From a virus: 12,896 nucleotides of DNA. Position numbers and translations under genes: made by a program. Below, one piece after another: positions 1 through 11,778 of the stretch. The stretch lies in the UHGV virus genome UHGV-0181219; one strand, written 5' to 3'. Position 1 is the stretch's first letter. Each line of letters starts with the position of its first letter. Under the pieces are notes generated by a model. The model did no database searches, was not told the DNA's origin, and worked only from the letters and a program-made list of their open reading frames with translations.

Positions 1-94
1 ATCCAAACTCAATATCCAGTGCATCAAAAAGCCAAAGCGGCGTTTGCCAGCAGTCTCTAACTTCTTTTGGTGTTTCTGATTTATGCTTAATCAT
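1..94 (-). CDS. Phage DNA N6-adenine methyltransferase-like protein, N-terminal fragment (gene continues past the window start)
   Basis: Minus-strand ATG at 92-94 overlaps the TGA stop of the HNH gene (ATGA). Translation MIKHKSETPKEVRDCWQTPLWLFDALDIEFG carries a W-x-TP-x-WLF motif that I recall from phage Dam-type methyltransferases. Only 31 codons are visible, so the call is tentative. Confidence 0.4.
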   Translation of the reverse strand, partial: MIKHKSETPKEVRDCWQTPLWLFDALDIEFG

Positions 95-618
95 ACAACC
101 TTCGCATATTGTCCGTGATATTTGTTGATAGCCTCACTGGCAACCAAACAAGCAAGTTCAAGATCTTCATAGAGCCCAAAATACAACCGGCCAAAATCTG
201 TGCGCACTTGAACGGCCCATTTATTTTTTTGCTTGTTCCATAAAACATTTTTTATTCCAGAACGGCTATTGCACTTAGTTTTCTGATTTCGGCTGTTTGC
301 TATCCGGCTTGCCTCCCTAAGATTTTTTGGGGAATTGTCCAGCCTGTTTCCGTTAATATGGTCAATATTTTTCAATGGCATTCTTTTGTTGTGCAGCGCA
401 AAAACAACTACGTGAACAAACATCTGAATGCCTGCAAAACACACCTGTCTATACCCAGATCCATTTATCGATGTTTTAATTTCATCTCCTGCCCGGTGGC
501 TGTGGTTGGGGTGTTTTAGCGAGTCCTTTTTGTATCTGACTGTATCTCCGTCTAAATACAGATAATCCTCAATAAGCCGATACCTATCTGACGCCGGCGT
601 ATTTGATTTGATAGTCAT
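91..618 (-). CDS. HNH homing endonuclease with a C-terminal AP2-type DNA-binding domain
   Basis: Track ORF 91..678 trimmed to the ATG at 616-618, which overlaps the ninB stop (ATGA). Product MTIKSN...YRLIEDYLYLDGDTVRYKK...IDHINGNRLDNSPKNLREASRIANSRN...NKWAVQVRTDFGRLYFGLYEDLELA shows the HNH_3 pattern (H-x-N-G-N...N-L) followed by an AP2-like segment. Confidence 0.8.
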   Translation of the reverse strand: MTIKSNTPASDRYRLIEDYLYLDGDTVRYKKDSLKHPNHSHRAGDEIKTSINGSGYRQVCFAGIQMFVHVVVFALHNKRMPLKNIDHINGNRLDNSPKNLREASRIANSRNQKTKCNSRSGIKNVLWNKQKNKWAVQVRTDFGRLYFGLYEDLELACLVASEAINKYHGQYAKVV

Positions 619-1055
619 GCAGCCCGATCTCCCCATCGCGCTTTCCATTCGAGAGCCAGTCGCGCTTCGTCTGACCACTTAACGCCACGCTCTGTACCGA
701 ATGCCTGTATAAGCTCTAATAGCTCCGCAAATTCGCTTACACGCATCCTGCTGGTTGACTGGCCTATTACCACAAAGCCATTCCCGGCAAGGTTAGGAAC
801 AACATCCTGCTGCTTTAATGCTGCGGTAAACACACACTTCCAGCTTTCTGCATCCAGCCAGCGACCATGCCATTCAACCTGACGAGAGACGTCACCTAAG
901 CAGGCCCATAGCTTCCTGTTTTGGTCTAAGCTGCGGTTGCGTTCCTGAATGGTTACTACGATTGGTTTGGTTGGGTCTGGAAGGATTTGCTGTACTGCGT
1001 GAATAGCGTTTTGCTGATGTGCTGGAGATCGAATTTCAAAGGTTAGTTTTTTCAT
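615..1055 (-). CDS. ninB: NinB (Orf-family recombination mediator)
   Basis: 146-aa product MKKLTFEIRSPAHQQNAIHAVQQILPDPTKPIVVTIQERNRSLDQNRKLWACLGDV... is near-identical over its length to lambda NinB as I recall it. Confidence 0.9.
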   Translation of the reverse strand: MKKLTFEIRSPAHQQNAIHAVQQILPDPTKPIVVTIQERNRSLDQNRKLWACLGDVSRQVEWHGRWLDAESWKCVFTAALKQQDVVPNLAGNGFVVIGQSTSRMRVSEFAELLELIQAFGTERGVKWSDEARLALEWKARWGDRAA

Positions 1056-1329: not shown

Positions 1330-1620
1330 TCATTGCCTTACCTCCATAAGCGCCCTATTAATAAACGCCGTCATTGGATTTGCACATCCCCACCCCGTAC
1401 CATCTGGATTTCTTTTAATTGGCTCCTTCTTCACTTTGCGTTTTGCATAAATAACCGTCTTCCACTTACGCTCAACAACACTCAAATGCCCTTGTTTCAC
1501 CATATGCCTTGCTGCTTGAGCGATTCTGTTATTTGGTATTCCGGTAATCAGTGCTAATTCATGTGGGGAGAATTGTTCATGAGTTTTCAGATATTCCAGG
1601 ATGATTTCTTTTCCAGTCAC
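1330..1620 (-). CDS. ren: Ren-like protein (winged-helix)
   Basis: 96-aa product MTGKEIILEYLKTHEQFSPHELALITGIPNNRIAQAARHM... matches the N-terminus and overall pattern of lambda Ren as recalled. Lies immediately after the DnaC-like gene with an ATGA overlap. Confidence 0.55.
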   Translation of the reverse strand: MTGKEIILEYLKTHEQFSPHELALITGIPNNRIAQAARHMVKQGHLSVVERKWKTVIYAKRKVKKEPIKRNPDGTGWGCANPMTAFINRALMEVRQ

Positions 1621-2462
1621 GATCTGCTCCTGTAACTATCCCATGTAAACGCAAGGGTGCATCCGCCGCCATCATTCATCCTGTCAATAACACGCTCACC
1701 AATGAATGCAGACAGTTCATCTTTGCTCTGGTTGCTAATCAGGATTGTTGGCTTCATGCGCTCGTAGCGGGTGTTGATGATTTCGAACATGATCATCTTT
1801 TCCGCCTCGCTTCCAAACTGCACACCAACCTCATCGATAATTAGCAGGTCAGGTTTAGTGAACTGTCGGATCACTTCATCCTCTGTGCGGGTGGAGTTTT
1901 TCGACCATGTTGATTTATATTCTCTGGCAATTTTCAGCGCCGTTGTGAAAATAGCTGAGCTTTGATGTTCCGTAATTGCGTGCCGGGCGATAGCCAGTGC
2001 AAGATGATTCTTTCCAGTACCAGGCTTTCCACACATAACCAGCCCACCGCCTTTCTGTAACCTCTCAGGCCATTTGCTGGCGTATGCCTGACACACTCTG
2101 AGCACTCTCTTTGCATCGTCGTTGACTGGCTCGTAGTTCTGTAGTGTGCAACCCTTGAATCGTTCAGGAATATCAAGATTATTCAACAGAAACTCGACAT
2201 TGCGCTTACGTGATTCCTCGTCGATTTTAATCTTCTCTGCCTGTAGCCGAATAAGCTCATCTCTCATGCATTCCGGGCATTCGCTAGGTCTTGAGGCAAA
2301 CTTAATTGGCCCAGTCGAGTAACGGTTACGCTGCTCAAACTCACCATGTTTTTCACAGATGCCAGTGCCAATTTCTACAGCTGTATGCTCGATAGCAATT
2401 GGCGGAGAACTCAATTCTGCAAGTTTTTTCTCCAGTTGGGAGATCTTTTCATCCAGCGTCAT
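1617..2462 (-). CDS. DnaC-like helicase loader (AAA+ ATPase)
   Basis: Walker A GKPGTGKNHLALAIA and Walker B LLIIDEVG are present, with an N-terminal Cys-rich region (CEKHG...CPEC) typical of DnaC/IstB-type phage replication proteins. Start moved to the ATG at 2460-2462 (MTLDEKISQ...), 2 nt after the O-like stop. Confidence 0.85.
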   Translation of the reverse strand: MTLDEKISQLEKKLAELSSPPIAIEHTAVEIGTGICEKHGEFEQRNRYSTGPIKFASRPSECPECMRDELIRLQAEKIKIDEESRKRNVEFLLNNLDIPERFKGCTLQNYEPVNDDAKRVLRVCQAYASKWPERLQKGGGLVMCGKPGTGKNHLALAIARHAITEHQSSAIFTTALKIAREYKSTWSKNSTRTEDEVIRQFTKPDLLIIDEVGVQFGSEAEKMIMFEIINTRYERMKPTILISNQSKDELSAFIGERVIDRMNDGGGCTLAFTWDSYRSRS

Positions 2463-2464
2463 GT

Positions 2465-3352
2465 TCACTCCTGCGCCCATGAAGGCATTTCAGTTTGTCC
2501 GTAATCTTTGGTGGCAAAGTTTTCAGCCTTAAGTCCATTAGCAACCTTGCGTACCGGTCTGGATAACGCCTGCTTGTTCTGGTAGCTGAGTTTCTGGCTG
2601 GCAGTGATAAACCAGTTCTTTGGCTTCTCATGGCTAAATTCGATATCCAGCCTTTCCAGTTCGTAATTCAGGTCAATGTTCGGATACAGGCGCTTCCATG
2701 CTTCGTAGTCCTTGTGGTTTAACCGAACGATATTTCCTTCGAATGCATAGCGACTTGAAATTTTATGGACATCAGCCCCACCCCCTTCACAAGTCGCGTC
2801 AGCGGCTTGGGTGTTAGAAAGGGAATCAGGAATCAGGTTAAGGGAATCAGGAATCAGGTTAAGGGAATCAGCAGGATTTAAACTGTTCTCTACTGGTTCT
2901 TGCACTGTACTTGCATGGTGCTTTTCTGGTTCTTCATTGTTTTCAATGATTTGTAGTGATTCGGCATTCTCCTTCTCTTCCTCTTTATCGTCCTTGCACT
3001 GTACTTGCATGGTGCTGTTATTGTTCTCTACTGGTTCTGGTATCTCACTGGCTGCTTCTTTGCAGTGAGGGTTCTGGTGCTTTTTCCAGTTATTGATTTG
3101 GATATATGAGCCGCCATTTACCTGATATCGGTTGATGAATTTGTGACTGTGAAGCTGCTGAAGCAGATCATTGCAGTCCACATCATCGAAAGGCAGTACC
3201 ATTGCTTTAATTTTCTTTGGGCGATCATCCAACCGCCCTTCTTTGTCAGCAATAGTCCATAACCCGGCAAAAAGGAGACGGGCATATGGAGAACACTCAG
3301 CTAATTCATCATTGGTGAAAAAGCCTGGTTTGATATTTCTTGAACGTGCCAT
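2465..3352 (-). CDS. Replication initiator / replisome organiser (O-like), with a C-terminal region resembling a DnaT-like domain
   Basis: Start set at the ATG at 3350-3352 (MARSRNIKPGFFTNDELAECSPYARLLFAGLW...), preceded by AAGGTGG. The acidic repeat-containing linker (DSLNLIPDSLNLIPDSL) is encoded by the iterons. The C-terminus (...ELERLDIEFSHEKPKNW...ASQKLSYQNK) loosely resembles the DnaT C-terminus from memory. Confidence 0.75.
   Translation of the reverse strand: MARSRNIKPGFFTNDELAECSPYARLLFAGLWTIADKEGRLDDRPKKIKAMVLPFDDVDCNDLLQQLHSHKFINRYQVNGGSYIQINNWKKHQNPHCKEAASEIPEPVENNNSTMQVQCKDDKEEEKENAESLQIIENNEEPEKHHASTVQEPVENSLNPADSLNLIPDSLNLIPDSLSNTQAADATCEGGGADVHKISSRYAFEGNIVRLNHKDYEAWKRLYPNIDLNYELERLDIEFSHEKPKNWFITASQKLSYQNKQALSRPVRKVANGLKAENFATKDYGQTEMPSWAQE
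2821..3037. repeat. Iteron-type direct repeats inside the O-like gene; putative phage replication origin
   Basis: GGGAATCAGGAATCAGGTTAA occurs in tandem at 2821-2841 and 2842-2862, with a partial third copy from 2863. CTTGCACTGTACTTGCATGGTGCT occurs at 2899-2922 and 2993-3016. TGTTCTCTACTGGTTC occurs at 2884-2899 and 3022-3037. Confidence 0.6.
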
Positions 3353-3363
3353 TTTGTCCACCT

Positions 3364-4164
3364 TTAGTACGGGAGTTCTTCCTGAGCTTCACGAATGCGT
3401 TCAGATACCCACTCCTTGAACGTTGTCCAGTTAGGTACTGTTTTCGCAAACTCAGTAAGTTCATCGAGATCTAAGTCGTATGAAAGCCATGCCTTGAGAT
3501 AACTCATTACATGGTTTTGATTGATATATATGCGGTTTTTAAGGATTCCTCTGATGTATAGAATCCTTTGTTCTTTTGGCGGTTTTCTTTTTGTCGCTGC
3601 TATGCGAGGGATGTACTCAAAGAATTCACCAGTAAGCTCATGGGTTATTTCTTGGGTGAGTTTTTTGTCTGCAGCAATCTCAATCGCATCGAGTATTTCT
3701 TCAAGCTTATATATTCGAAGCCATCTCTTGATAGATTTTCGCCCATTGTCATTAACAGTAAATGGCGCAATGCAGTCGTCAATTTTGGTAGCGACAATAT
3801 CAACAACATCGTCTTTCAGGCTCTTAAGACCATCTCGCCACTTGATCATCATCTCCAGTTGCTCTCGCTTGGTATTAAGTTCCTGGAGTTGCTGCCTTTG
3901 CTTTTCCATTATTGAATTATCGCTGAGCAGTTTGTCTCTTTTCCCGCCATTACAACTATCGCAAGAAGTAATAAGGTTCATCATGTCGTTATCGCCACCC
4001 TTGCTAACTGGGTTGATATGGTCGACATGAAGGATGACGTCTGGCGCAGAACTCCCACAGTACTGGCATTTGAAGCCATCGCGCTTGAAAACCTCAAACC
4101 GTATTTTCTTGGTAATGCCGGAACGAATCTTTTTTACCTGGTCTGGTGTAGGTTTTTTTGCCAT
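3364..4164 (-). CDS. HNH endonuclease-domain protein with a C-terminal domain of unknown function
   Basis: Start set at the ATG at 4162-4164 (MAKKPTP...), which has GGAG 6 nt upstream. N-terminus has HNH signatures (CQYCGSS...HVDHINPVSKGG...NLITSCDSCN), then a coiled-coil-like stretch and about 150 aa that I do not recognise. Confidence 0.75.
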   Translation of the reverse strand: MAKKPTPDQVKKIRSGITKKIRFEVFKRDGFKCQYCGSSAPDVILHVDHINPVSKGGDNDMMNLITSCDSCNGGKRDKLLSDNSIMEKQRQQLQELNTKREQLEMMIKWRDGLKSLKDDVVDIVATKIDDCIAPFTVNDNGRKSIKRWLRIYKLEEILDAIEIAADKKLTQEITHELTGEFFEYIPRIAATKRKPPKEQRILYIRGILKNRIYINQNHVMSYLKAWLSYDLDLDELTEFAKTVPNWTTFKEWVSERIREAQEELPY

Positions 4165-4185
4165 AATTAACTCCATAGAAAGCAG

Positions 4186-4485
4186 TTAAAAATCCATCTG
4201 GATTTGTTCAGAACGCTCGGTCTTGCACACCGGGCGTTTTTTATTGGTGATTTCATCAAGCGCATACTTAAAAGCCCTGCTAATCGGACTGATGTCTGAT
4301 GCCATTCCGAAAGCACACAAGACCGAAGCAATAAATCTCCAGTCCGTTCTGCTTATCTTCGATTCATGACAGCCAATCATCTTTGCCAGACCGCGCTGTG
4401 TAAGCGTTGACAGGTTGATGAGTAAATCAGTTTCAGCGCGATCAATTTCTCGCTGTGTTGGCTTGCTGTAACTTGCTTGTGTCAT
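4186..4485 (-). CDS. cII: cII-type transcriptional activator
   Basis: C-terminus ...EITNKKRPVCKTERSEQIQMDF closely matches lambda CII (...ILTNKKRPAATERSEQIQMEF). An HTH region (TQRGLAKMIGCHESKISR) precedes it, and the position after cro and nutR fits. Confidence 0.85.
   Translation of the reverse strand: MTQASYSKPTQREIDRAETDLLINLSTLTQRGLAKMIGCHESKISRTDWRFIASVLCAFGMASDISPISRAFKYALDEITNKKRPVCKTERSEQIQMDF
4214..4242 (+). terminator. Plus-strand rho-independent terminator antisense to the 3' end of cII (OOP-like)
   Basis: 8-bp stem CGCTCGGT/ACCGGGCG (4214-4221 and 4229-4236, one G-U pair), 7-nt loop, then TTTTTT at 4237-4242. It sits inside the cII coding region on the opposite strand. Confidence 0.5.
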
Positions 4486-4622: not shown

Positions 4623-4850
4623 TTATGCAGCCAGAAGGTTCTTTTTGCTTATTTCAAGCATTTCGCTTGCTTGATATTTGCCACCAGAAATCTCTTCGAT
4701 TTTTGATGCGTATTTCGTTTTCCCAAAAAACTCAGTCTTAGGGAGGAAGCCGTTTTTGAGCCACTTATAGACAGCCCTTTCGCTAACTCCACAAGCCTTC
4801 GCAACTTCAGGGATGCCGACACCTTTAATCGGCTCATCAAGATTTTGCAT
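4623..4850 (-). CDS. cro: Cro-like HTH repressor
   Basis: Divergent from cI across an operator-rich spacer. The product has an HTH (GIPEVAKACGVSERAVYKWLKNG). Start set at the internal ATG (MQNLDEP...) so that a 78-bp divergent promoter region remains; the longer start at 4883 is possible. Confidence 0.6.
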   Translation of the reverse strand: MQNLDEPIKGVGIPEVAKACGVSERAVYKWLKNGFLPKTEFFGKTKYASKIEEISGGKYQASEMLEISKKNLLAA

Positions 4851-4865
4851 AGGGATATCCTTTTT

Positions 4866-4927
4866 CGTACTTTCAGTACGCATTATGATTGAACTGAAAG
4901 TTTTTGCAAGTGCTTTAGTATCGTACT
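4866..4927. promoter_or_regulatory. OR-like operator cluster with divergent PR/PRM region
   Basis: Near-palindrome CGTACTTTCAGTACG at 4866-4880. Its core ACTTTCAGT (4870-4878) recurs inverted as ACTGAAAGT at 4893-4901. A third palindrome AGTATCGTACT lies at 4917-4927. Centres are about 23-25 bp apart. Confidence 0.4.
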
Positions 4928-4928
4928 C

Positions 4929-5636
4929 ATGGTTCAGAATGAAAAAGTGCGCAAAGAATTCGCCCAGCGGCTAGCGCAAGCCTGTAAAGAAGCTGGTCTT
5001 GATGAACATGGTAGGGGAATGGCTATAGCCCGTGCCCTTTCTCTTTCGTCCAAAGGCGTTAGCAAATGGTTTAATGCTGAGTCTTTACCGCGTCAGGAAA
5101 AAATGAATGCGCTTGCGAAATTTCTAAACGTTGATGTTGTTTGGCTTCAGCACGGCACTTCGTTAAATGGAGCGAATGATGAAGATACTCTTTCATTTGT
5201 TGGCAAATTAAAAAAAGGGTTAGTGCGCGTGGTTGGTGAGGCAATTCTTGGTGTTGATGGTGCCATCGAGATGACCGAAGAGCGCGATGGGTGGCTCAAG
5301 ATTTATAGCGATGATCCAGATGCCTTTGGTCTTCGTGTGAAAGGAGACAGCATGTGGCCCAGAATAAAATCAGGAGAATATGTACTCATTGAGCCTAACA
5401 CCAAAGTATTCCCGGGTGATGAGGTGTTTGTCAGAACCGTTGAAGGACACAACATGATTAAGGTTCTTGGCTATGACAGAGATGGAGAATACCAATTTAC
5501 AAGCATTAACCAGGACCACAGGCCTATAACGTTGCCTTATCATCAAGTAGCAAAGGTGGAGTATGTGGCTGGTATTCTGAAGCAATCTCGCCATCTGGAT
5601 GACATCGAGGCAAGGGAGTGGCTGAAAAATTCGTGA
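4929..5636 (+). CDS. cI: cI-type prophage repressor (HTH plus LexA-like S24 autopeptidase)
   Basis: N-terminal HTH region and a C-terminal S24 signature (GDSMWPRIKSGEYVLIEP ... MIKVL). No SD precedes the ATG, consistent with a leaderless PRM transcript as in lambda cI. Confidence 0.85.
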   Translation: MVQNEKVRKEFAQRLAQACKEAGLDEHGRGMAIARALSLSSKGVSKWFNAESLPRQEKMNALAKFLNVDVVWLQHGTSLNGANDEDTLSFVGKLKKGLVRVVGEAILGVDGAIEMTEERDGWLKIYSDDPDAFGLRVKGDSMWPRIKSGEYVLIEPNTKVFPGDEVFVRTVEGHNMIKVLGYDRDGEYQFTSINQDHRPITLPYHQVAKVEYVAGILKQSRHLDDIEAREWLKNS

Positions 5637-5836: not shown

Positions 5837-6316
5837 ATGGATAAAATTAATTACCCACCCCTGTTTGAGCCAGGGTTCCATGACATGGATGAAGCTGGAT
5901 TAAAATCGTATTGTGTCGATTGCTTTCCTTCATCATCCAGGCGAGGCATGCTATACTGTAATTTTATACAGCTACTCGAATCTATTCGAGAATTATCTGC
6001 TCAATATGGCTGTTTTACAGAAATATGGGTTGATGGTTCATACACCACGTCTAAACCAGAGCCTGATGATATTGATATTTTGTTGGTATGTGACTATAGC
6101 AATATAAACTCAATACCTGTCATGCTTCGGGGCCGCGTCGATAATTTGCTTGACCGAAACTACATCAAACAAAACTACAAAATTGATGTCCTACTACTCA
6201 TGAAGAATTTAGATGACCCTAACTATGATTATGAGTACTGGCGTAGCTACTGGCGCGGTTGGTTTGGTTTTGATCGCAGTGAAAACCCGAAAGGGTTAGT
6301 GAGGATTTTTTTATGA
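5837..6316 (+). CDS. Minimal nucleotidyltransferase (pol-beta-fold, MNT/SMODS-like), first gene of the candidate defence cassette
   Basis: 159-aa product with the pol-beta NTase signature: helix RELSAQYG, then G67-S68, D78-I-D80 (DIDILLV) and D117 (KIDVLLL). Its stop overlaps the next start (ATGA at 6313-6316). Confidence 0.7.
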   Translation: MDKINYPPLFEPGFHDMDEAGLKSYCVDCFPSSSRRGMLYCNFIQLLESIRELSAQYGCFTEIWVDGSYTTSKPEPDDIDILLVCDYSNINSIPVMLRGRVDNLLDRNYIKQNYKIDVLLLMKNLDDPNYDYEYWRSYWRGWFGFDRSENPKGLVRIFL

Positions 6317-7245
6317 ATGATAAATCAATGTTTAAAAATTGCGATAAACGCATTGATTTCATTCAAAAAGAAGTCGATGCAATGAAGCAAAACAAAACCA
6401 GGTCCTTTGCTGACATGCTTCTTTATCGCTCCATGGATTCTCATCTGAGCGATTTGAAGGCCGAAAAATTAAAGCAAGATAGTCGGCACCCACTTATCGA
6501 TTTTTTTGAGCTGCGGCTGAAAGGCTCTGAGGTTGACTTTGGCTCTATTCCTTTAGAGCTGCTTGGGGCTATTTCAACAAATCTTGCAGCGCTAATACAA
6601 AGAGCAACACACAAAATTGCCTCAGGCAAGGACTCAAAAAAAGTTCCCTACGACGTGAAAAGCTCCTTAAACCTCAGGCTGGCTGATTTATCCCCTGGGT
6701 CTACAAAATTGGGCGTCACCTTCTCTACAGGAATAGCAGAATTAGTAGAAACAGTACCCAGCAAGGCTGTAAAAGGCATATTCGATTTGTTGTTAAGCGA
6801 TGACGACAACAACTTCATGAATCACGTCGCTGAAATTGGATACAATTCCACTGTAAGCCTTAAGAGAATCGTAGAGGAATGCGATAAACACAACTTAACA
6901 TTTGATGCAAGTTGGACCGGTCCATTTAGTAATGGCACCAAGGTGGCAACTATTGACTCCAATAAAATTAAGTACTTGGTGAGTAGACTTACATCAACCA
7001 TTTCATCCCCTCCCATTACTGAAACGGTTACAGGCGAACTGGTCGTTCTATCCAAATATGGGAAGCTGGAGCTTGATGTTGGTGGTGAACATTTAAAGGC
7101 TTCCTATCCGATTGAAATGCTAGATTTAATACAAAAAAAACACAAGGTCGGACAGATTGTTTCTCTTTTAGTGGAGACTACTGAGATTCACAATGATCGC
7201 ATAGGTCTGTACCGTAAAAACCATCTTGTTAAATCGGTTCTTTAA
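6313..7245 (+). CDS. Hypothetical 310-aa protein, partner of the nucleotidyltransferase
   Basis: GAGGA RBS 7 nt upstream, translationally coupled to the NTase gene. I recognise no family; no convincing transmembrane segment. An R39-x4-H44 motif near the N-terminus is noted without weight. Confidence 0.7.
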   Translation: MNDKSMFKNCDKRIDFIQKEVDAMKQNKTRSFADMLLYRSMDSHLSDLKAEKLKQDSRHPLIDFFELRLKGSEVDFGSIPLELLGAISTNLAALIQRATHKIASGKDSKKVPYDVKSSLNLRLADLSPGSTKLGVTFSTGIAELVETVPSKAVKGIFDLLLSDDDNNFMNHVAEIGYNSTVSLKRIVEECDKHNLTFDASWTGPFSNGTKVATIDSNKIKYLVSRLTSTISSPPITETVTGELVVLSKYGKLELDVGGEHLKASYPIEMLDLIQKKHKVGQIVSLLVETTEIHNDRIGLYRKNHLVKSVL

Positions 7246-7576: not shown

Positions 7577-7704
7577 AATAACCAAAGTGAACTTTGGGGT
7601 GAATGCAGAAGCTAATCTTCTCGGCGGAGGCGCTTTGCAATGATTACGCGACCGGAGTTAGTCGCCCGGCTGTATTCACCGCCAAAGTTCACCAGGAGGT
7701 CTAT

Positions 7705-8088
7705 ATGACACGCAGAACTCAGTTCAAAGGCAATTCACGTTCTCGTCGTCGTGAGCGTTTAAAGGCAAAGGCATTAGCTAACGGCGTACTGGCCCGCGAA
7801 GAAGCAATAAGTTCAGAAGTATTACACCGCCCTACTCTAAGCAGAGCGCAGATTCAGGCTAAAGGTACTCACGAAACGCCTGAGCGCATAGAAGACGCTA
7901 AGCCAATTAAGTTCATGGCACAGGACGTGATCTGGCAACAGAAAGAATACAGACGCAATCTGGAGAGAGCGGCCATTGTGTACGCGAATGAGTTTGGACA
8001 TAAGCAACCAGAAACTGGTGTATGTCTTCCAAATGTAGCTCTTTACGCGGCAGGCTACCGGAAATCAAAACAACTGACAGCGAGGTAA
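7705..8088 (+). CDS. N: N-type transcription antitermination protein (P22 gp24-like)
   Basis: Start at the ATG at 7705-7707, with AGGAGG 5 nt upstream. Arginine-rich motif near the N-terminus (NSRSRRRERLKAKA). C-terminus ...LPNVALYAAGYRKSKQLTAR closely matches P22 gp24 (...LPGVALYAAGHRKSKQITAR). Confidence 0.85.
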   Translation: MTRRTQFKGNSRSRRRERLKAKALANGVLAREEAISSEVLHRPTLSRAQIQAKGTHETPERIEDAKPIKFMAQDVIWQQKEYRRNLERAAIVYANEFGHKQPETGVCLPNVALYAAGYRKSKQLTAR

Positions 8089-8091
8089 GTG

Positions 8092-8316
8092 ATGAATCAG
8101 ACATACATTCCATCATGCTTGAGAAATCTGCCAAAGCAGAAAGCAAAGCCCCGCAAGCAAGCCATAAAGGACGCTAAGGCAGAGGTTATTGATCAAGCAA
8201 TACAATTGCTCAGGGAGGAGTTAAGAAGTGGCAAGCTCGAAGGAATGATGATGCCCTATCAGCGCGGATATCTATCGGCGATTAGTAAGTTGGAAGTATT
8301 GAAGAGTGAATTATGA
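8092..8316 (+). CDS. Hypothetical early-left protein (74 aa)
   Basis: ATG at 8092-8094 with GAGGTAAG upstream. Stop overlaps the next start (ATGA at 8313-8316). No family recognised. Confidence 0.5.
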   Translation: MNQTYIPSCLRNLPKQKAKPRKQAIKDAKAEVIDQAIQLLREELRSGKLEGMMMPYQRGYLSAISKLEVLKSEL

Positions 8317-9005
8317 ACTATCTGGAATTTCCGGATGGTTCATTGTTTTGGCAGCAAACCACTTATTTGAGAGGAATTAATATGTCATCAATCCGCTTAA
8401 CTACGAGAATGAAAGAGAAAATCGCTCGTAACGCTTTAATTAAGTCTGGGGTTTTCGCTGAACTTGAAGAAGTAACAAAGTTAAAGAACCAGCTTGCACT
8501 TGACGCCAGAGTTATTGCGTTTGGCGGTAAAAAGAAAACTGAGGAAGTGGATCAGTTATCATCCAGGTTAGTAGCTATAAGTGAAGAACTTGAAAAGATG
8601 GGATGTTCATTTTACTCATGCGATGTTCGTTCTACTTCAATTTATCTGACTGTATCTGGCAGAAGGGTTGGATGGCTTTCATATGGGAAAGACGGCAACG
8701 GCGAAGATATATTGCTCCCTACTCCGACCAAAGATAAATGCATGTTTGACGCAGAACACGAAATAACAAAAAGGTTTGATGAAATCTGCGCATTGCAACA
8801 AAAACTTGAAGCCAAGAAAAAGGATATCGAATCAAATGTATGGGCTGCTTTGAACTCAGTCACAACAGTTAAGCGACTTATTGAAGTTTGGCCTGAAAGC
8901 AAAGAATTGCTACCAAAAGAAGCAGATAAAGCAAGTACAGCACTTCCTGCTTTACGGGTAGAAGATTTGAATAAGATGATTGGACTTCCTTCCGAGGCCG
9001 CATAG
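8313..9005 (+). CDS. Hypothetical early-left protein (230 aa)
   Basis: Long ORF coupled to the upstream gene. An alternative start at the ATG at 8382-8384 (MSSIRLT...) with a GAGG RBS is also plausible. No family recognised. Confidence 0.6.
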   Translation: MNYLEFPDGSLFWQQTTYLRGINMSSIRLTTRMKEKIARNALIKSGVFAELEEVTKLKNQLALDARVIAFGGKKKTEEVDQLSSRLVAISEELEKMGCSFYSCDVRSTSIYLTVSGRRVGWLSYGKDGNGEDILLPTPTKDKCMFDAEHEITKRFDEICALQQKLEAKKKDIESNVWAALNSVTTVKRLIEVWPESKELLPKEADKASTALPALRVEDLNKMIGLPSEAA

Positions 9006-9582: not shown

Positions 9583-9894
9583 ATGATGATTCTGACTCTG
9601 AATGATAAGCGTGAAATATCGCAAATAATCGCAAGTTTTACTGATGAAGATTACGAACGAATCAACAGTGAAGTTGATCGCCTCTGCAAACGTTGCGACC
9701 CAATAAGCGAAATGCTTCGCTCATATAAACCAGATGAACACACTAAGGACGCTATCGACTGGCTGGAAGATTATGACTGTAACTATCAGGAAAAAGCCGC
9801 TGAATGGTTCTGGGATGCAATAACCGAAAGAGTTAAGGCTGAATATGCCTTCGCAATATTCAAACGCAGACACGTTTATGGAGAAGCAGCATGA
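9583..9894 (+). CDS. Hypothetical protein in the gam/abc position upstream of recT (possible RecBCD modulator)
   Basis: ATG with AGGAGAA RBS. Stop overlaps the recT start (ATGA at 9891-9894). The functional guess rests on position only. Confidence 0.6.
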   Translation: MMILTLNDKREISQIIASFTDEDYERINSEVDRLCKRCDPISEMLRSYKPDEHTKDAIDWLEDYDCNYQEKAAEWFWDAITERVKAEYAFAIFKRRHVYGEAA

Positions 9895-10802
9895 GCAATA
9901 TCGTTGAATTCGTTAAACAGCAAGAGCAGTTATTCTGCGGAGCATTGACTGAACAGACGGTGACATGGGCTAAGGAAAGCCAGTTTGCAATTCAGTATTT
10001 CCAGAAAAATGATTACCTGGCTAAAACAGCACTGGCAAATCCAACCAGCGCACAGAACGCCATCATCAATGTTGCGGCGATCGGTATCACCTTAAACCCG
10101 GCTAGCAAACTGGCTTATCTGGTTCCGCGCGACGGCATGGTGTGCCTTGATATCAGTTATATGGGATTGCTCCATATTGCAATGGAGTCTGGTGTTATCT
10201 CATGGGGTCAGGCAAAACTTGTTCATGCTAACGATACCTATGAGTCAAACGGGCTTGATAAAGCACCAACCCATAAATACAACGCCTTCGGTGATCGTGG
10301 TGATATTGTTGGCGTTTACTGCACAGTTAAGACGCCAGCAGGTGATTATCTAACGGAAGAGATGAGTCTGGCTGAAATTGAGGCTGTAAGGAAAACAAGC
10401 AAGGCAGCATTCAGCGATAAAGGACCATGGGTAAATCACTGGAATGAGATGGCGCGAAAGACGGTCGTAAAGCGTGCAAGCAAGTATTGGCCTAAGGCAT
10501 CACGTCTTGATAGTGCTATTCACGTACTAAACGAAGAAGAGGGTGTGTGGACTGAACCAGTTATGCCGCACAAATCAGAGGAAGATATCCGCGAAGATGA
10601 ACGGAAACGCCAGCAGGAAATAATGGATAAAGCACAACTTCTTTGCGATGAAATGGCTCAGGCAGAAAACATGGATGATTTGAAGCGATATTTTGCAGAA
10701 GCATATCGCCTGACATCTGGAATGAAATTGCAGCAGAACGTACAAGCCATTTACATAGAATGCAAAGCGAAACTGGAGGTTGCCAGTGAGCAAACTGTAT
10801 GA
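9891..10802 (+). CDS. recT: RecT-family single-strand annealing recombinase
   Basis: 303-aa product containing GPWVNHWNEMARKTVVKRASKYWP, which matches the conserved RecT segment GPWVTHWEEMAKKTAIRRLFKYLP from Rac RecT as recalled. Confidence 0.85.
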   Translation: MSNIVEFVKQQEQLFCGALTEQTVTWAKESQFAIQYFQKNDYLAKTALANPTSAQNAIINVAAIGITLNPASKLAYLVPRDGMVCLDISYMGLLHIAMESGVISWGQAKLVHANDTYESNGLDKAPTHKYNAFGDRGDIVGVYCTVKTPAGDYLTEEMSLAEIEAVRKTSKAAFSDKGPWVNHWNEMARKTVVKRASKYWPKASRLDSAIHVLNEEEGVWTEPVMPHKSEEDIREDERKRQQEIMDKAQLLCDEMAQAENMDDLKRYFAEAYRLTSGMKLQQNVQAIYIECKAKLEVASEQTV

Positions 10803-11268
10803 AATTGCCAATGAATACGCAAAGCTGATGGATTCAGATTTAGAGCCAGAGATGATTGCTGACACAATAGAAGGCATGGAAGGAGAATTTACCGATAAAA
10901 TAGAGCAACTTCTTTCCGTCATTAAAAATGAATCTGGTTATGCTGAACGCCTCAAGGAAGAGGCAAAGTCACTGAATGAGCGAGCCGCAGTAATTCAAAA
11001 TAAGATTGACAGCATCAAATCATATATAGCGTCATCGCTTGAAATGGTTGGCAAGAAAAATATTCGAGCAGGTATTCACCAGGTAACAATCCGCAAACCG
11101 TCAGAAATTGTAGAAATCATCGACTCAAGCGCCCTTCCTCCTGAATACGTTGAGTTTGAAACGACAATTAAAGCCGACAAACTGGCAATCAAACACCAAC
11201 TAAAAGCAGGAATAAATATCCCCGGCGCTCAACTCAAAGTTGGGAAACCTTCACTTCTTATCAAATAA
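10786..11268 (+). CDS. Coiled-coil protein, possibly Gp157-family, accompanying RecT
   Basis: Probable GTG start at 10786 with GGAGGT 5 nt upstream (the track used TTG at 10780). Coiled-coil-rich sequence. Family assignment is by size, position and composition only. Confidence 0.5.
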   Translation: MSKLYEIANEYAKLMDSDLEPEMIADTIEGMEGEFTDKIEQLLSVIKNESGYAERLKEEAKSLNERAAVIQNKIDSIKSYIASSLEMVGKKNIRAGIHQVTIRKPSEIVEIIDSSALPPEYVEFETTIKADKLAIKHQLKAGINIPGAQLKVGKPSLLIK

Positions 11269-11279
11269 CGGTATCGACT

Positions 11280-11594
11280 ATGAAAAAGACTCCATGGGAG
11301 AAATGGGAAGTCGATTTCTTGCGCGAAGTAGCGGCGACAATGCCAGTTGAAGTTATCGCTGAAAAACTGGAAAGGACTGAAAAAGCAGTAATGGCAAAAG
11401 CAACAAGGATTGGCGCTGACATTGTTAGCCGACTTCGTGGAAGACGCTGGACAAGAGCCGAAGTATCACTTTTCGGTAAGTTCTCCGCAGAAGAAATAGC
11501 AATTGCAACCTGCCGCTCAATTTATTCAGTAAGAGCTATGCGATACAAGCTAAAAAAACTCGATGAAGAAAGAGCAGGCATACGAATAAATTAA
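11280..11594 (+). CDS. Hypothetical protein with an internal tandem duplication of a W-x3-EV...EEIA...R(T/S) motif (possible HTH/SANT-like)
   Basis: 104-aa ORF. The two halves ([12 protein letters not shown]...[14 protein letters not shown] and [29 protein letters not shown]) align by eye. Confidence 0.55.
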
Positions 11595-11610
11595 CAAAGA
11601 GGAATTTACA

Positions 11611-11778
11611 ATGAGAGGACTTGCATACAATCCCGGCATTCTTCCGGCAGAAATGATTATTCGCCAACGCGTAAAGCCAATGCCATCGAGAGAGGAATTG
11701 CTAAAGAGAAATAGTTTCGGTTCTGTTAACGACAACAGATATCTGAATGCGATGTGGCGTAAAGGAGGCAAACAGTGA
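11611..11778 (+). CDS. Small hypothetical protein (55 aa)
   Basis: ATG with AAGAGGA RBS, absent from the track (below its size cut-off). Stop overlaps the GTG start of the next gene (GTGA). Confidence 0.35.

Follow-up and report, generated by a model that had tools for sequence, protein, structure and literature searches.

The question raised by this locus is why a gene for a phage replication initiator carries an elaborate set of direct DNA repeats in its protein-coding middle. The 12,896-nt stretch of UHGV virus genome UHGV-0181219 that was analysed here (hereafter the window) encodes a 295-amino-acid initiator at 2465-3352, and a sequence-only reading had proposed that two families of iteron-like repeats in the acidic linker of this protein, described there as O-like, constitute a replication origin in the manner of phage lambda. 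Our comparisons indicate that 2822-3038 is probably the phage replication origin, located within the linker-coding middle of its own initiator gene and bound by the initiator. The core of the earlier proposal, namely that iteron-like repeats in the initiator linker form a cis-acting origin, is strongly supported by the comparison with relatives, but the likeness to lambda does not hold in detail.

All three repeat families of the sequence-only reading were recovered where it had placed them, far above chance, although the gene that holds them lies on the minus strand, which corrects the earlier description. The 21-bp unit AAGGGAATCAGGAATCAGGTT is present in 2.5 tandem copies with 100% identity at 2819-2871 (Tandem Repeats Finder, TRF). 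The 24-mer CTTGCACTGTACTTGCATGGTGCT has exact copies at 2899-2922 and 2993-3016, and the match can be lengthened to 27 nt if one mismatch is accepted; among 200 dinucleotide-preserving shuffles, not one contained two matches to it, even when three mismatches were allowed. The 16-mer TGTTCTCTACTGGTTC, which by reading of the sequence is really 17 nt long, is exact at 2884-2899 and 3022-3037, and three matches were obtained in none of 200 such shuffles. The order of the 24-mer and the 16-mer is indeed swapped between the two places, and the repeats do fall within the acidic linker, since 2822-3038 corresponds to codons ~105-177, between the N- and C-terminal domains. The division into two iteron families, in contrast, had to be revised: the repeats are real, but they are better described as one array with a 7-bp period and two 11-bp-phased clusters. 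The order of the 24-mer and the 16-mer looks swapped because both are made of units shared by the two 11-bp clusters. The arrangement is as follows.

2822-2870: heptad array of seven 7-bp units, translated as DSLNLIPDSLNLIPDS
2871-2878: junction between the 11-bp units and the heptads, GCAGGATT, sense AATCCTGC
2879-2933: proximal cluster of five 11-bp-phased units, TAAACTGTTCT, CTACTGGTTCT, TGCACTGTACT, TGCATGGTGCT, TTTCTGGTTCT
2934-2983: 50-bp spacer between the clusters, T-rich on the plus strand, A+T 0.62
2984-3038: distal cluster of five 11-bp-phased units, TTTATCGTCCT, TGCACTGTACT, TGCATGGTGCT, GTTATTGTTCT, CTACTGGTTCT

The 21-bp unit is composed of three heptads, GGAATCA, GGAATCA and GGTTAAG. 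Starts of GGAATCA are at 2822, 2829, 2843, 2850 and 2864, those of GGTTAAG at 2836 and 2857, and on the sense strand the two words read TGATTCC and CTTAACC, respectively. Just 5' of the first heptamer the sense sequence CCTGC is kept throughout the family, with 1.2-2.0 bits at its last positions. The proximal cluster, with the sense core AG(C/A/T)AC, holds the first copies of the 16-mer and of the 24-mer, and the distal cluster, the start of which lies 105 bp from that of the proximal one, holds the second copies of both. Lag-11 autocorrelation of 2871-3049 reached 0.46, compared to 0.30 +/- 0.03 in 2000 shuffles (maximum 0.43). The spacer 2934-2983 is a candidate unwinding region, albeit a weak one, the A+T maximum of 0.75 being restricted to 2930-2959. 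No inverted repeats beyond weak long-range pairs were found in the repeat region, which contains only direct repeats of 7-bp and 11-bp period.

In order to assess conservation independently of the repeats, 16 diverse N-terminal domains of the initiator family were aligned and searched against one genome per species. This search confirmed 389 relatives; the best 80 represent Enterobacterales, Beta- and Gammaproteobacteria, several Firmicutes lineages, Acidobacteriota, Actinomycetota and others, and their loci have a GC content of 0.36-0.67. At least two exact copies of TGATTCC inside 70 nt were present in 53 of the 55 non-redundant genes selected in this way by protein, at spacings of 7 (50 cases), 14 (about 50), 21 (16) and 15 nt (6-7), and elsewhere the word was encountered only ~0-2 times per 6-kb locus. 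In the 88 nt upstream of the first heptamer, the mean autocorrelation was 0.456, 0.413 and 0.440 at lags 11, 22 and 33, respectively, compared to ~0.25 at other lags. Lag 11 was the best lag upstream of the heptads in 44 of 54 genes, in contrast to 5 of 54 N-terminal and 1 of 53 C-terminal control segments, and 11-nt phasing upstream of the array was seen in 48 of 53 genes. The family consensus consists of six phased units with an AGCAC core, ending in CCtGC directly before the first TGATTCC.

When 60 enterobacterial genes with a common C-terminal domain were compared in 21-nt bins, conservation peaked at the first heptad unit (0.99), above every other bin of the gene. The proximal 11-mers, at 0.77-0.86, are conserved like the folded domains, whereas the spacer and the distal cluster are the least conserved parts of the gene (0.42-0.60). 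The spacer is missing from short-linker relatives; in long-linker relatives, the 11-nt phasing of the distal region persists (mean 0.43 at lag 11; best lag in 29 of 46). The exact 29-mer GGAATCAGGAATCAGGTTAAGGGAATCAG of the array occurs in at least 120 viral contigs and is located inside this gene family in all 113 loci with a readable gene N-terminus, the remaining loci being cut at the 5' end. It is retained at 98-100% identity in Vibrio, Acinetobacter and Pseudomonas phages, the flanks of which are too diverged for megablast. The array and the winged-helix domain of the initiator, described below, are thus exclusively associated.

Near-identical Salmonella and enterobacterial homologues (proteins P0001-P0020) differ in the number of 21-bp units, of which they have 1 to 6, with protein lengths of 288, 295, 302, 309, 316 and 323 amino acids corresponding to 1-6 copies of DSLNLI(P). 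The exact DSLNLI unit was found in 110 of the 120 closest protein clusters, the other 10 being without that exact peptide. The comparison of repeat number among related prophages, which the sequence-only reading had suggested together with absence of the repeats as the adverse outcome, therefore favours an origin, given the 110 of 120 clusters and the 53 of 55 genes that retain them. Chance or mere slippage as the source of the repeats is ruled out by their conservation across phyla. Several E. coli records deposited as plasmids encode the initiator at 100% N-terminal identity (NZ_CP081694.1, 29.7 kb; NZ_CP081778.1 and NZ_CP081786.1, 39.4 kb). They may be excised or extrachromosomal forms of phages or assembly products, the 39.4-kb pair being close in size to the phage genome. 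The 6.2-kb "plasmid" NZ_CP081787.1, which also carries the gene and was considered as a natural mini-replicon, is actually a linear contig fragment of the phage.

Conservation of a coding repeat might reflect either the DNA or the peptide, and the reading frames separate the two. The copies of the 24-mer are 94 nt apart and are therefore read in different frames, one as STMQVQCK and the other as HHASTVQE; the copies of the 16-mer, 138 nt apart, are in the same frame and both encode EPVEN. TGATTCC can be read in only two stop-free frames, as xxT-GAT-TCC (Asp-Ser) and as C-TGA-TTC-C (Leu-Ile-Pro), and the protein-selected relatives use these two 111 and 71 times, respectively. In relation to codon use elsewhere in the same genes, Asp-Ser was encoded by GATTCC in 74% of cases where 7% was expected, and Leu-Ile-Pro by CTGATTC in 94% where 10% was expected. 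Genes within a subfamily are related and their counts are not independent events; this kinship is addressed by a codon control in which linker motifs defined by their peptide ([APT]DS and LIP) were compared with other residues of the same 56 genes. For 24 invariant N-terminal residues the commonest codon averaged only 43%, an invariant Asp, for example, being GAT 30 times and GAC 26 times. In the linker motifs of the same genes, in contrast, Asp was GAT in 98% and Ser was TCC, one of six codons, in 90%, while the Leu and Ile of LIP were CTG in 96% and ATT in 97%. As invariant N-terminal residues have randomised codons in the very same genes, synonymous sites are frozen in the array and saturated elsewhere. 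The out-of-frame 24-mers, the use of the heptamer in two frames and the frozen synonymous sites show, at the level of sequence comparison, that purifying selection acts on the repeat DNA and not on the peptide. The linker is a clean example of amino acids being dictated by a DNA site.

Diverged subfamilies, drawn from viral contigs and named phages, reveal that the same layout can be written with other words. Butters-type actinophage members, in which the protein motif HQNPH is replaced by HQRID, have four or five units of 11 bp built around the core CTCGCGA, then ...GCGCC and then an 8-bp array of GGAACAG(R) in 3-7 copies. GGAACAG occurred at least twice in 40 of 42 of these genes and TCGCGA in 36 of 42, TGATTC in 0 of 42, and lag 11 was best in 36 of 40. 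F10-like Pseudomonas proteins are encoded by genes with TGATTC at alternating 7- and 8-bp spacing (28 of 34). Genes of the HQNPH type contain neither GGAACAG nor TCGCGA clusters. The three subfamilies thus have mutually exclusive words (TGATTCC with AGCAC units, TGATTC at 7/8 bp, and GGAACAG with CTCGCGA), and in these sequences the layout is kept while both words switch along with the winged-helix subtype. Since the subfamilies keep the layout with other words, the repeats and the winged-helix domain co-vary, as would be expected if the domain reads the repeats. The actinophage word GGAACAG (sense) resembles the proteobacterial GGAATCA (antisense), as in gp60 of Mycobacterium phage Butters (locus L206, 2856-2943) and loci L285-L364; the array may have been inverted relative to the gene in the actinophage lineage, or the likeness may be a coincidence.

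The protein that would read these repeats consists of three parts.

About amino acids 1-97 (window 3062-3352, minus strand): N-terminal winged-helix domain
About amino acids 98-183: acidic linker
About amino acids 184-295: C-terminal domain

The 295-residue initiator matched no Pfam family at E <= 0.01, the lambda O family (Phage_rep_O) included, and no NCBIfam family. The 16 diverse N-terminal domains gave no Pfam or NCBIfam match either, and RepA_N (PF06970) was not reached even at E <= 10. Phage_rep_org_N (PF09681), named in the depositor's note on the homologue from Hafnia phage yong1, was rejected, as that protein had no Pfam match at E <= 1; the HK639 homologue also had none at E <= 1, and the window protein was likewise without a PF09681 match. 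A PDB sequence search with the N-terminal profile returned spurious designed proteins only. The designation O-like therefore holds for position and role but not for sequence: the initiator is not an O homologue and is instead a member of a very large winged-helix family distinct from lambda O. Among 8000 candidates scored, 6835 proteins match the initiator at E < 1e-5, nearly all annotated as "hypothetical protein", and related PHROGs are labelled "replication initiation protein". The family is distributed among temperate phages and prophages of E. coli, Salmonella, Klebsiella, Pseudomonas, Acinetobacter, Vibrio, Mycobacterium and many uncultured lineages.

When residues 1-105 were modelled with AlphaFold2 from an alignment of 64 diverse homologues, the result had a pLDDT (predicted local distance difference test) of 93.5 and a helix-strand-helix-helix-strand-strand topology, and the N-terminal domain is thus predicted with confidence to be a winged helix. 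The best structural match of this model is the iteron-binding domain of pSK41 RepA, and the N-terminal domains of PLE RepA and of DnaD were also listed. The model of the C-terminal domain (pLDDT 58) was too poor for a fold search. In relatives, at least five unrelated types of C-terminal domain begin right after the array.

The far end of the initiator gene is distinct again.

2465-2524, minus strand: final 60 nt of the initiator gene, coding for the C-terminal tail ...KDYGQTEMPSWAQE

In phages N7 and mEpX1 and in many E. coli prophages, the 3' ends of "replication protein O" genes that lie ahead of DnaC-like genes match these 60 nt at 95-100% identity, although the genes have no other relationship to the initiator gene. 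Across 82 loci with the same C-terminal domain, tails of the type ...DLDFNNTDWAY(G/E)V(I/M)R were followed by a gene for a lambda-P-like loader in 25 of 25 cases, and other tail types (e.g., ...KDYGQTE.PSWA..) by a DnaC-like gene, except for one locus without a classified loader. The P-associated tail (DLDFNNTDWAYGVIR), seen in HK639-type relatives, shares 95% identity with the C-terminal ends of phi80 gp15, mEp237 O and HK225 O, all of them genuine members of the O family. Tail and loader thus vary together, and judged by these alignments the last ~20 codons (2465-2524 in the window; 1423-1550 in locus L365) are a separately exchanged module matched to the adjacent loader gene. As this module is common to true O-family initiators, a mosaic boundary lies inside the initiator gene. 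The tail encoded by 2465-2524 is a candidate loader-recruiting peptide, and the initiator would thus be a functional counterpart of O, with a DNA-binding head, a linker containing the cis-site and a loader-matched tail.

We propose that the conserved N-terminal winged-helix domain would recognise the repeated DNA. The invariant heptads (sense TGATTCC at 7-, 14- or 21-bp spacing) would be its high-specificity sites, an assignment that we prefer because they are the most conserved element. The 11-bp-phased AGCAC-type units might align further protomers on one face of the helix and so assemble a bent nucleoprotein complex. Recruitment of the loader encoded immediately downstream, which is DnaC-like here and presumably delivers the host DnaB, would fall to the variable C-terminal part, notably its last ~20 residues. 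The repeat-encoded peptide (...EKHHASTVQEPVEN...ADSLNLIPDSLNLIPDS) would be mainly a by-product of the constraint on the DNA and serve as a flexible linker, as documented for pSK41 Rep. Binding of the repeats, firing of the origin and the choice of the melted element are all inferred from the comparisons above.

Several observations weigh against an origin at 2822-3038. No literature on binding or origin activity was found for any member of the family. A clear A+T-rich unwinding element is missing: the spacer has 62% A+T, is poorly conserved and is not present in short-linker relatives. DnaA boxes are at chance level in the window (31 matches, 32 expected), with none within 2780-3300, and some distant relatives (Mx8 p19, VvAW1, GP4) have no obvious array. 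Furthermore, a centre-to-centre spacing of 7 bp is tight for winged helices on duplex DNA, and the heptads might be read as single strand or by another factor. This tight spacing makes single-strand reading of the heptad array a live possibility; a single-strand code in TGATTCC, if true, would explain both the 7-nt spacing and the extreme conservation. The two-tier layout, in which 4-6 duplex sites phased to the helical turn abut a 7/8-nt array, is kept with different words in proteobacterial, firmicute and actinobacterial phages, and it could be an origin-opening device for a winged-helix initiator that is not an AAA+ protein. Protomers nucleated at the 11-bp sites would then extend along one strand of the short-period array and so open it, which would make the layout a phage counterpart of the bacterial DnaA-box/DnaA-trio module. 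We regard this extension as speculative and rather doubtful.

Other roles for the repeats have to be weighed against an origin. Co-variation and selection at the DNA level show that the DNA is read but not what follows from it, and the repeats might be initiator-binding sites with a regulatory role while the true origin lies elsewhere, for instance in autoregulation of initiator and loader by a roadblock to the pR transcript or in copy control by "handcuffing". The lack of a strong A+T-rich unwinding element and of DnaA boxes beside the repeats would agree with such a role. However, there was no second motif cluster elsewhere in the window or in the flanks of related loci that could provide alternative origin sites, and the position between DNA-binding and partner-binding domains fits documented origins (PMC5703833; PMC3155836), which leaves a purely regulatory function unlikely. 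We consider it quite unlikely that the repeats are a recombination or homing junction, that is, a shared linker for the exchange of N- and C-terminal modules or a target of HNH or GIY-YIG nucleases. Such a junction would fit the several unrelated kinds of C-terminal domain that start right after the array, as well as the nuclease genes beside the initiator gene (HNH directly upstream in the window, GIY-YIG in the same slot of E. coli OW1E2), the HNH inserts in six linkers and phrog_5718. A mere aid to recombination, however, would not fix synonymous sites across phyla beside saturated N-terminal codons, and it leaves unexplained the 11-bp phasing and the joint, subfamily-specific replacement of both repeat types; homing could exploit a conserved site without causing its conservation.

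A function of the encoded peptide, either as a repeated short linear motif (...LIPDS...) or as a flexible acidic linker contacting a replication protein of the host, might be suspected from the conservation of ADSLNLIPDS and is plausible for an acidic stretch between two domains. It becomes highly improbable in view of a single DNA word used in two frames, 24-mer copies that code for different peptides and a codon choice frozen (GAT 98%, TCC 90%) across genomes of 36-67% GC; moreover, the equivalent peptide of pSK41 is dispensable (PMC5703833). Least probable of all is an RNA element, such as UGAUUCC in the mRNA or GGAAUCA in an antisense transcript binding a regulator, or antisense hairpin terminators in the 24-mers, although a simple scan flags both 24-mers as terminator-like on the plus strand. 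Folding gave a weak hairpin for the 24-mer (-2.9 kcal/mol, z -1.7) and no structure for the heptad array on either strand; an Rfam scan of 2400-3500 at E <= 1 gave no match, no sigma-70 promoter was found in the same segment, and an 11-bp period corresponds to the helical repeat of duplex DNA but to nothing obvious in RNA. The codon data, the two-frame use, the lack of structure and the helical-pitch periodicity thus contradict both the peptide and the RNA explanation.

The surroundings of the presumed origin were assigned by gene calls and by Pfam and PHROG matches, which identify the window as the immunity and replication region of a lambdoid phage.

4929-5636, plus strand: cI-like repressor gene
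4623-4883, minus strand: cro-like gene
4186-4485, minus strand: cII
3364-4176, minus strand: HNH endonuclease gene, directly upstream of the initiator gene
2465-3352, minus strand: replication initiator gene, 295 amino acids, ATG at 3352
1617-2480, minus strand: DnaC-like helicase loader gene, its start overlapping the initiator stop
Past the DnaC-like gene, minus strand: ren/MarR-like gene, then NinB
91-678, minus strand: second HNH endonuclease gene (Pfam HNH_3, phrog_99), past NinB and overlapping the NinB end

The order cI, cro, cII, HNH, initiator, DnaC-like, ren-like, NinB is that of the lambdoid replication slot. The loader gene matches Pfam IstB_IS21 and Bac_DnaA and phrog_50, "DnaC-like helicase loader"; its NCBIfam DnaC-like matches are all under the curated cut-offs.

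Two HNH genes are situated inside 4 kb of the replication module. The contents of the slot that separates cII from the initiator gene vary, a nuclease being frequent: HNH in the window and in phage Louie, GIY-YIG in E. coli OW1E2. In HK639 the slot contains an open reading frame (ORF) of no recognised type, and in Hafnia phage yong1 a weakly beta-clamp-like ORF (PF02767, E 1.8e-4, below cut-off). The coordinates of the slot in related loci are 2395-3087 (L367), 2286-2690 (L365) and 2288-2824 (L366). An HNH domain is inserted within the initiator linker itself in loci L044, L052, L141, L142, L149 and L171, Mx8 p19 (L203) has what was judged by eye to be a GIY-YIG/T5orf172-like insert, and phrog_5718 covers the winged-helix and HNH domains together. 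The nucleases of slot and linker may be homing endonucleases that exploit the invariant origin DNA, or they may be functional partners.

Terminator-like hairpins with T-runs were noted on the plus strand at 2402-2420 and 2429-2443, just past the initiator stop and antisense to the 5' part of the DnaC-like gene; they are possibly terminators of antisense transcription or chance matches. Two ORFs (phrog_9194, phrog_6603) are located between the repressor gene and an N-like antiterminator gene (7603-8088), in the region 5837-7245 (plus strand), and RecT-like and Mu Gam-like genes follow farther on (plus strand, region 9891-11268). TRF detected three other short tandem repeats in the window, namely 20 bp x 2.0 at 8598-8636, inside the ORF 8313-9005; ~10 bp x 2.2 at 9614-9634, near the start of the ORF 9583-9894; and 14 bp x 1.9 at 11589-11615, between ORFs.

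If the proposed origin is true, a function and a cis-site would be assigned to a very common initiator family that is almost always annotated as "hypothetical" and has no Pfam model. It would also provide a sequence rule for finding such prophage origins, namely an array of TGATTCC or GGAACAG preceded by 11-bp-phased units. Phages Louie and Dewey, sequenced isolates that are 99% identical in the initiator gene, constitute a ready experimental system. Finally, the copy-number polymorphism of the heptads and the swappable C-terminal tail bear on the reshuffling of replication modules among lambdoid phages.

An origin inside the initiator gene is established for lambda, in which ori consists of four ~19-bp dyad-symmetric iterons followed by an A+T-rich block. 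Like lambda ori in O, and like the phi80/82/P22-type origins, the repeats described here occupy the slot after cII and before the helicase-loader gene; as in lambda, they are placed in the linker DNA that separates an N-terminal domain for DNA binding from a C-terminus for partner binding, and as in lambdoid O systems the C-terminal tail is exchanged together with the loader. Unlike lambda O, the window initiator has no sequence relationship to that family and no Pfam match; its repeats are direct 7-bp heptads and 11-bp units that are not dyad-symmetric and have no marked A+T-rich block, and its loader partner is DnaC-like and not P. The 8-bp repeats of plasmid pAD1 offer a further parallel. 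Bacterial oriC reportedly contains an unwinding module composed of a DnaA box and DnaA-trios, with which the two-tier layout shares phased duplex sites that abut a short-period tandem array. This is an analogy only, because the initiator here would be a winged-helix protein without AAA+ and the period is 7-8 nt in contrast to 3 nt.

Origins inside initiator genes are also known from plasmids pAD1, pSX267, pLS32, pSK1 and pSK41 (PMC3155836). In pSK41, four Rep boxes in the centre of rep are bound by the first 120 residues of the protein, the origin-encoded central domain serves as a linker that can be dispensed with, and the C-terminal domain is specific to the host (PMC5703833). RepA_N replicons (pSK41, pTZ2162, pAD1) and the RepA of Vibrio cholerae PLE have a three-part initiator with an iteron-binding N-terminal winged helix (PMC7145576); the family described here resembles them in its three-part initiator with a predicted N-terminal winged helix, and resembles pSK41 in particular in having repeats central in the initiator gene, for which an origin role is suggested here, and a variable, partner-specific C-terminal domain. 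[quoted passage not shown] Unlike pSK41, in which the C-terminal domain binds the DnaG primase, the family pairs with DnaC-like or lambda-P-like loaders, and unlike plasmid RepA_N it is found mainly in temperate phages and prophages of many phyla. Mycobacteriophage RepA proteins (PMC7157519), which are relatives of pMSC262-family plasmid initiators, were considered as well and have no evident link to it. No mention of the repeat words, the peptide motifs, the N-terminal motif or the family was found in the library of papers that was searched. Since the repeats differ from those of lambda and RepA_N, the protein is not a member of the O, RepA_N or Phage_rep_org_N families and the searched literature is silent, we rate the system as a new variation on a known design. 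The origin-inside-initiator arrangement itself is already known from lambda and pSK41.

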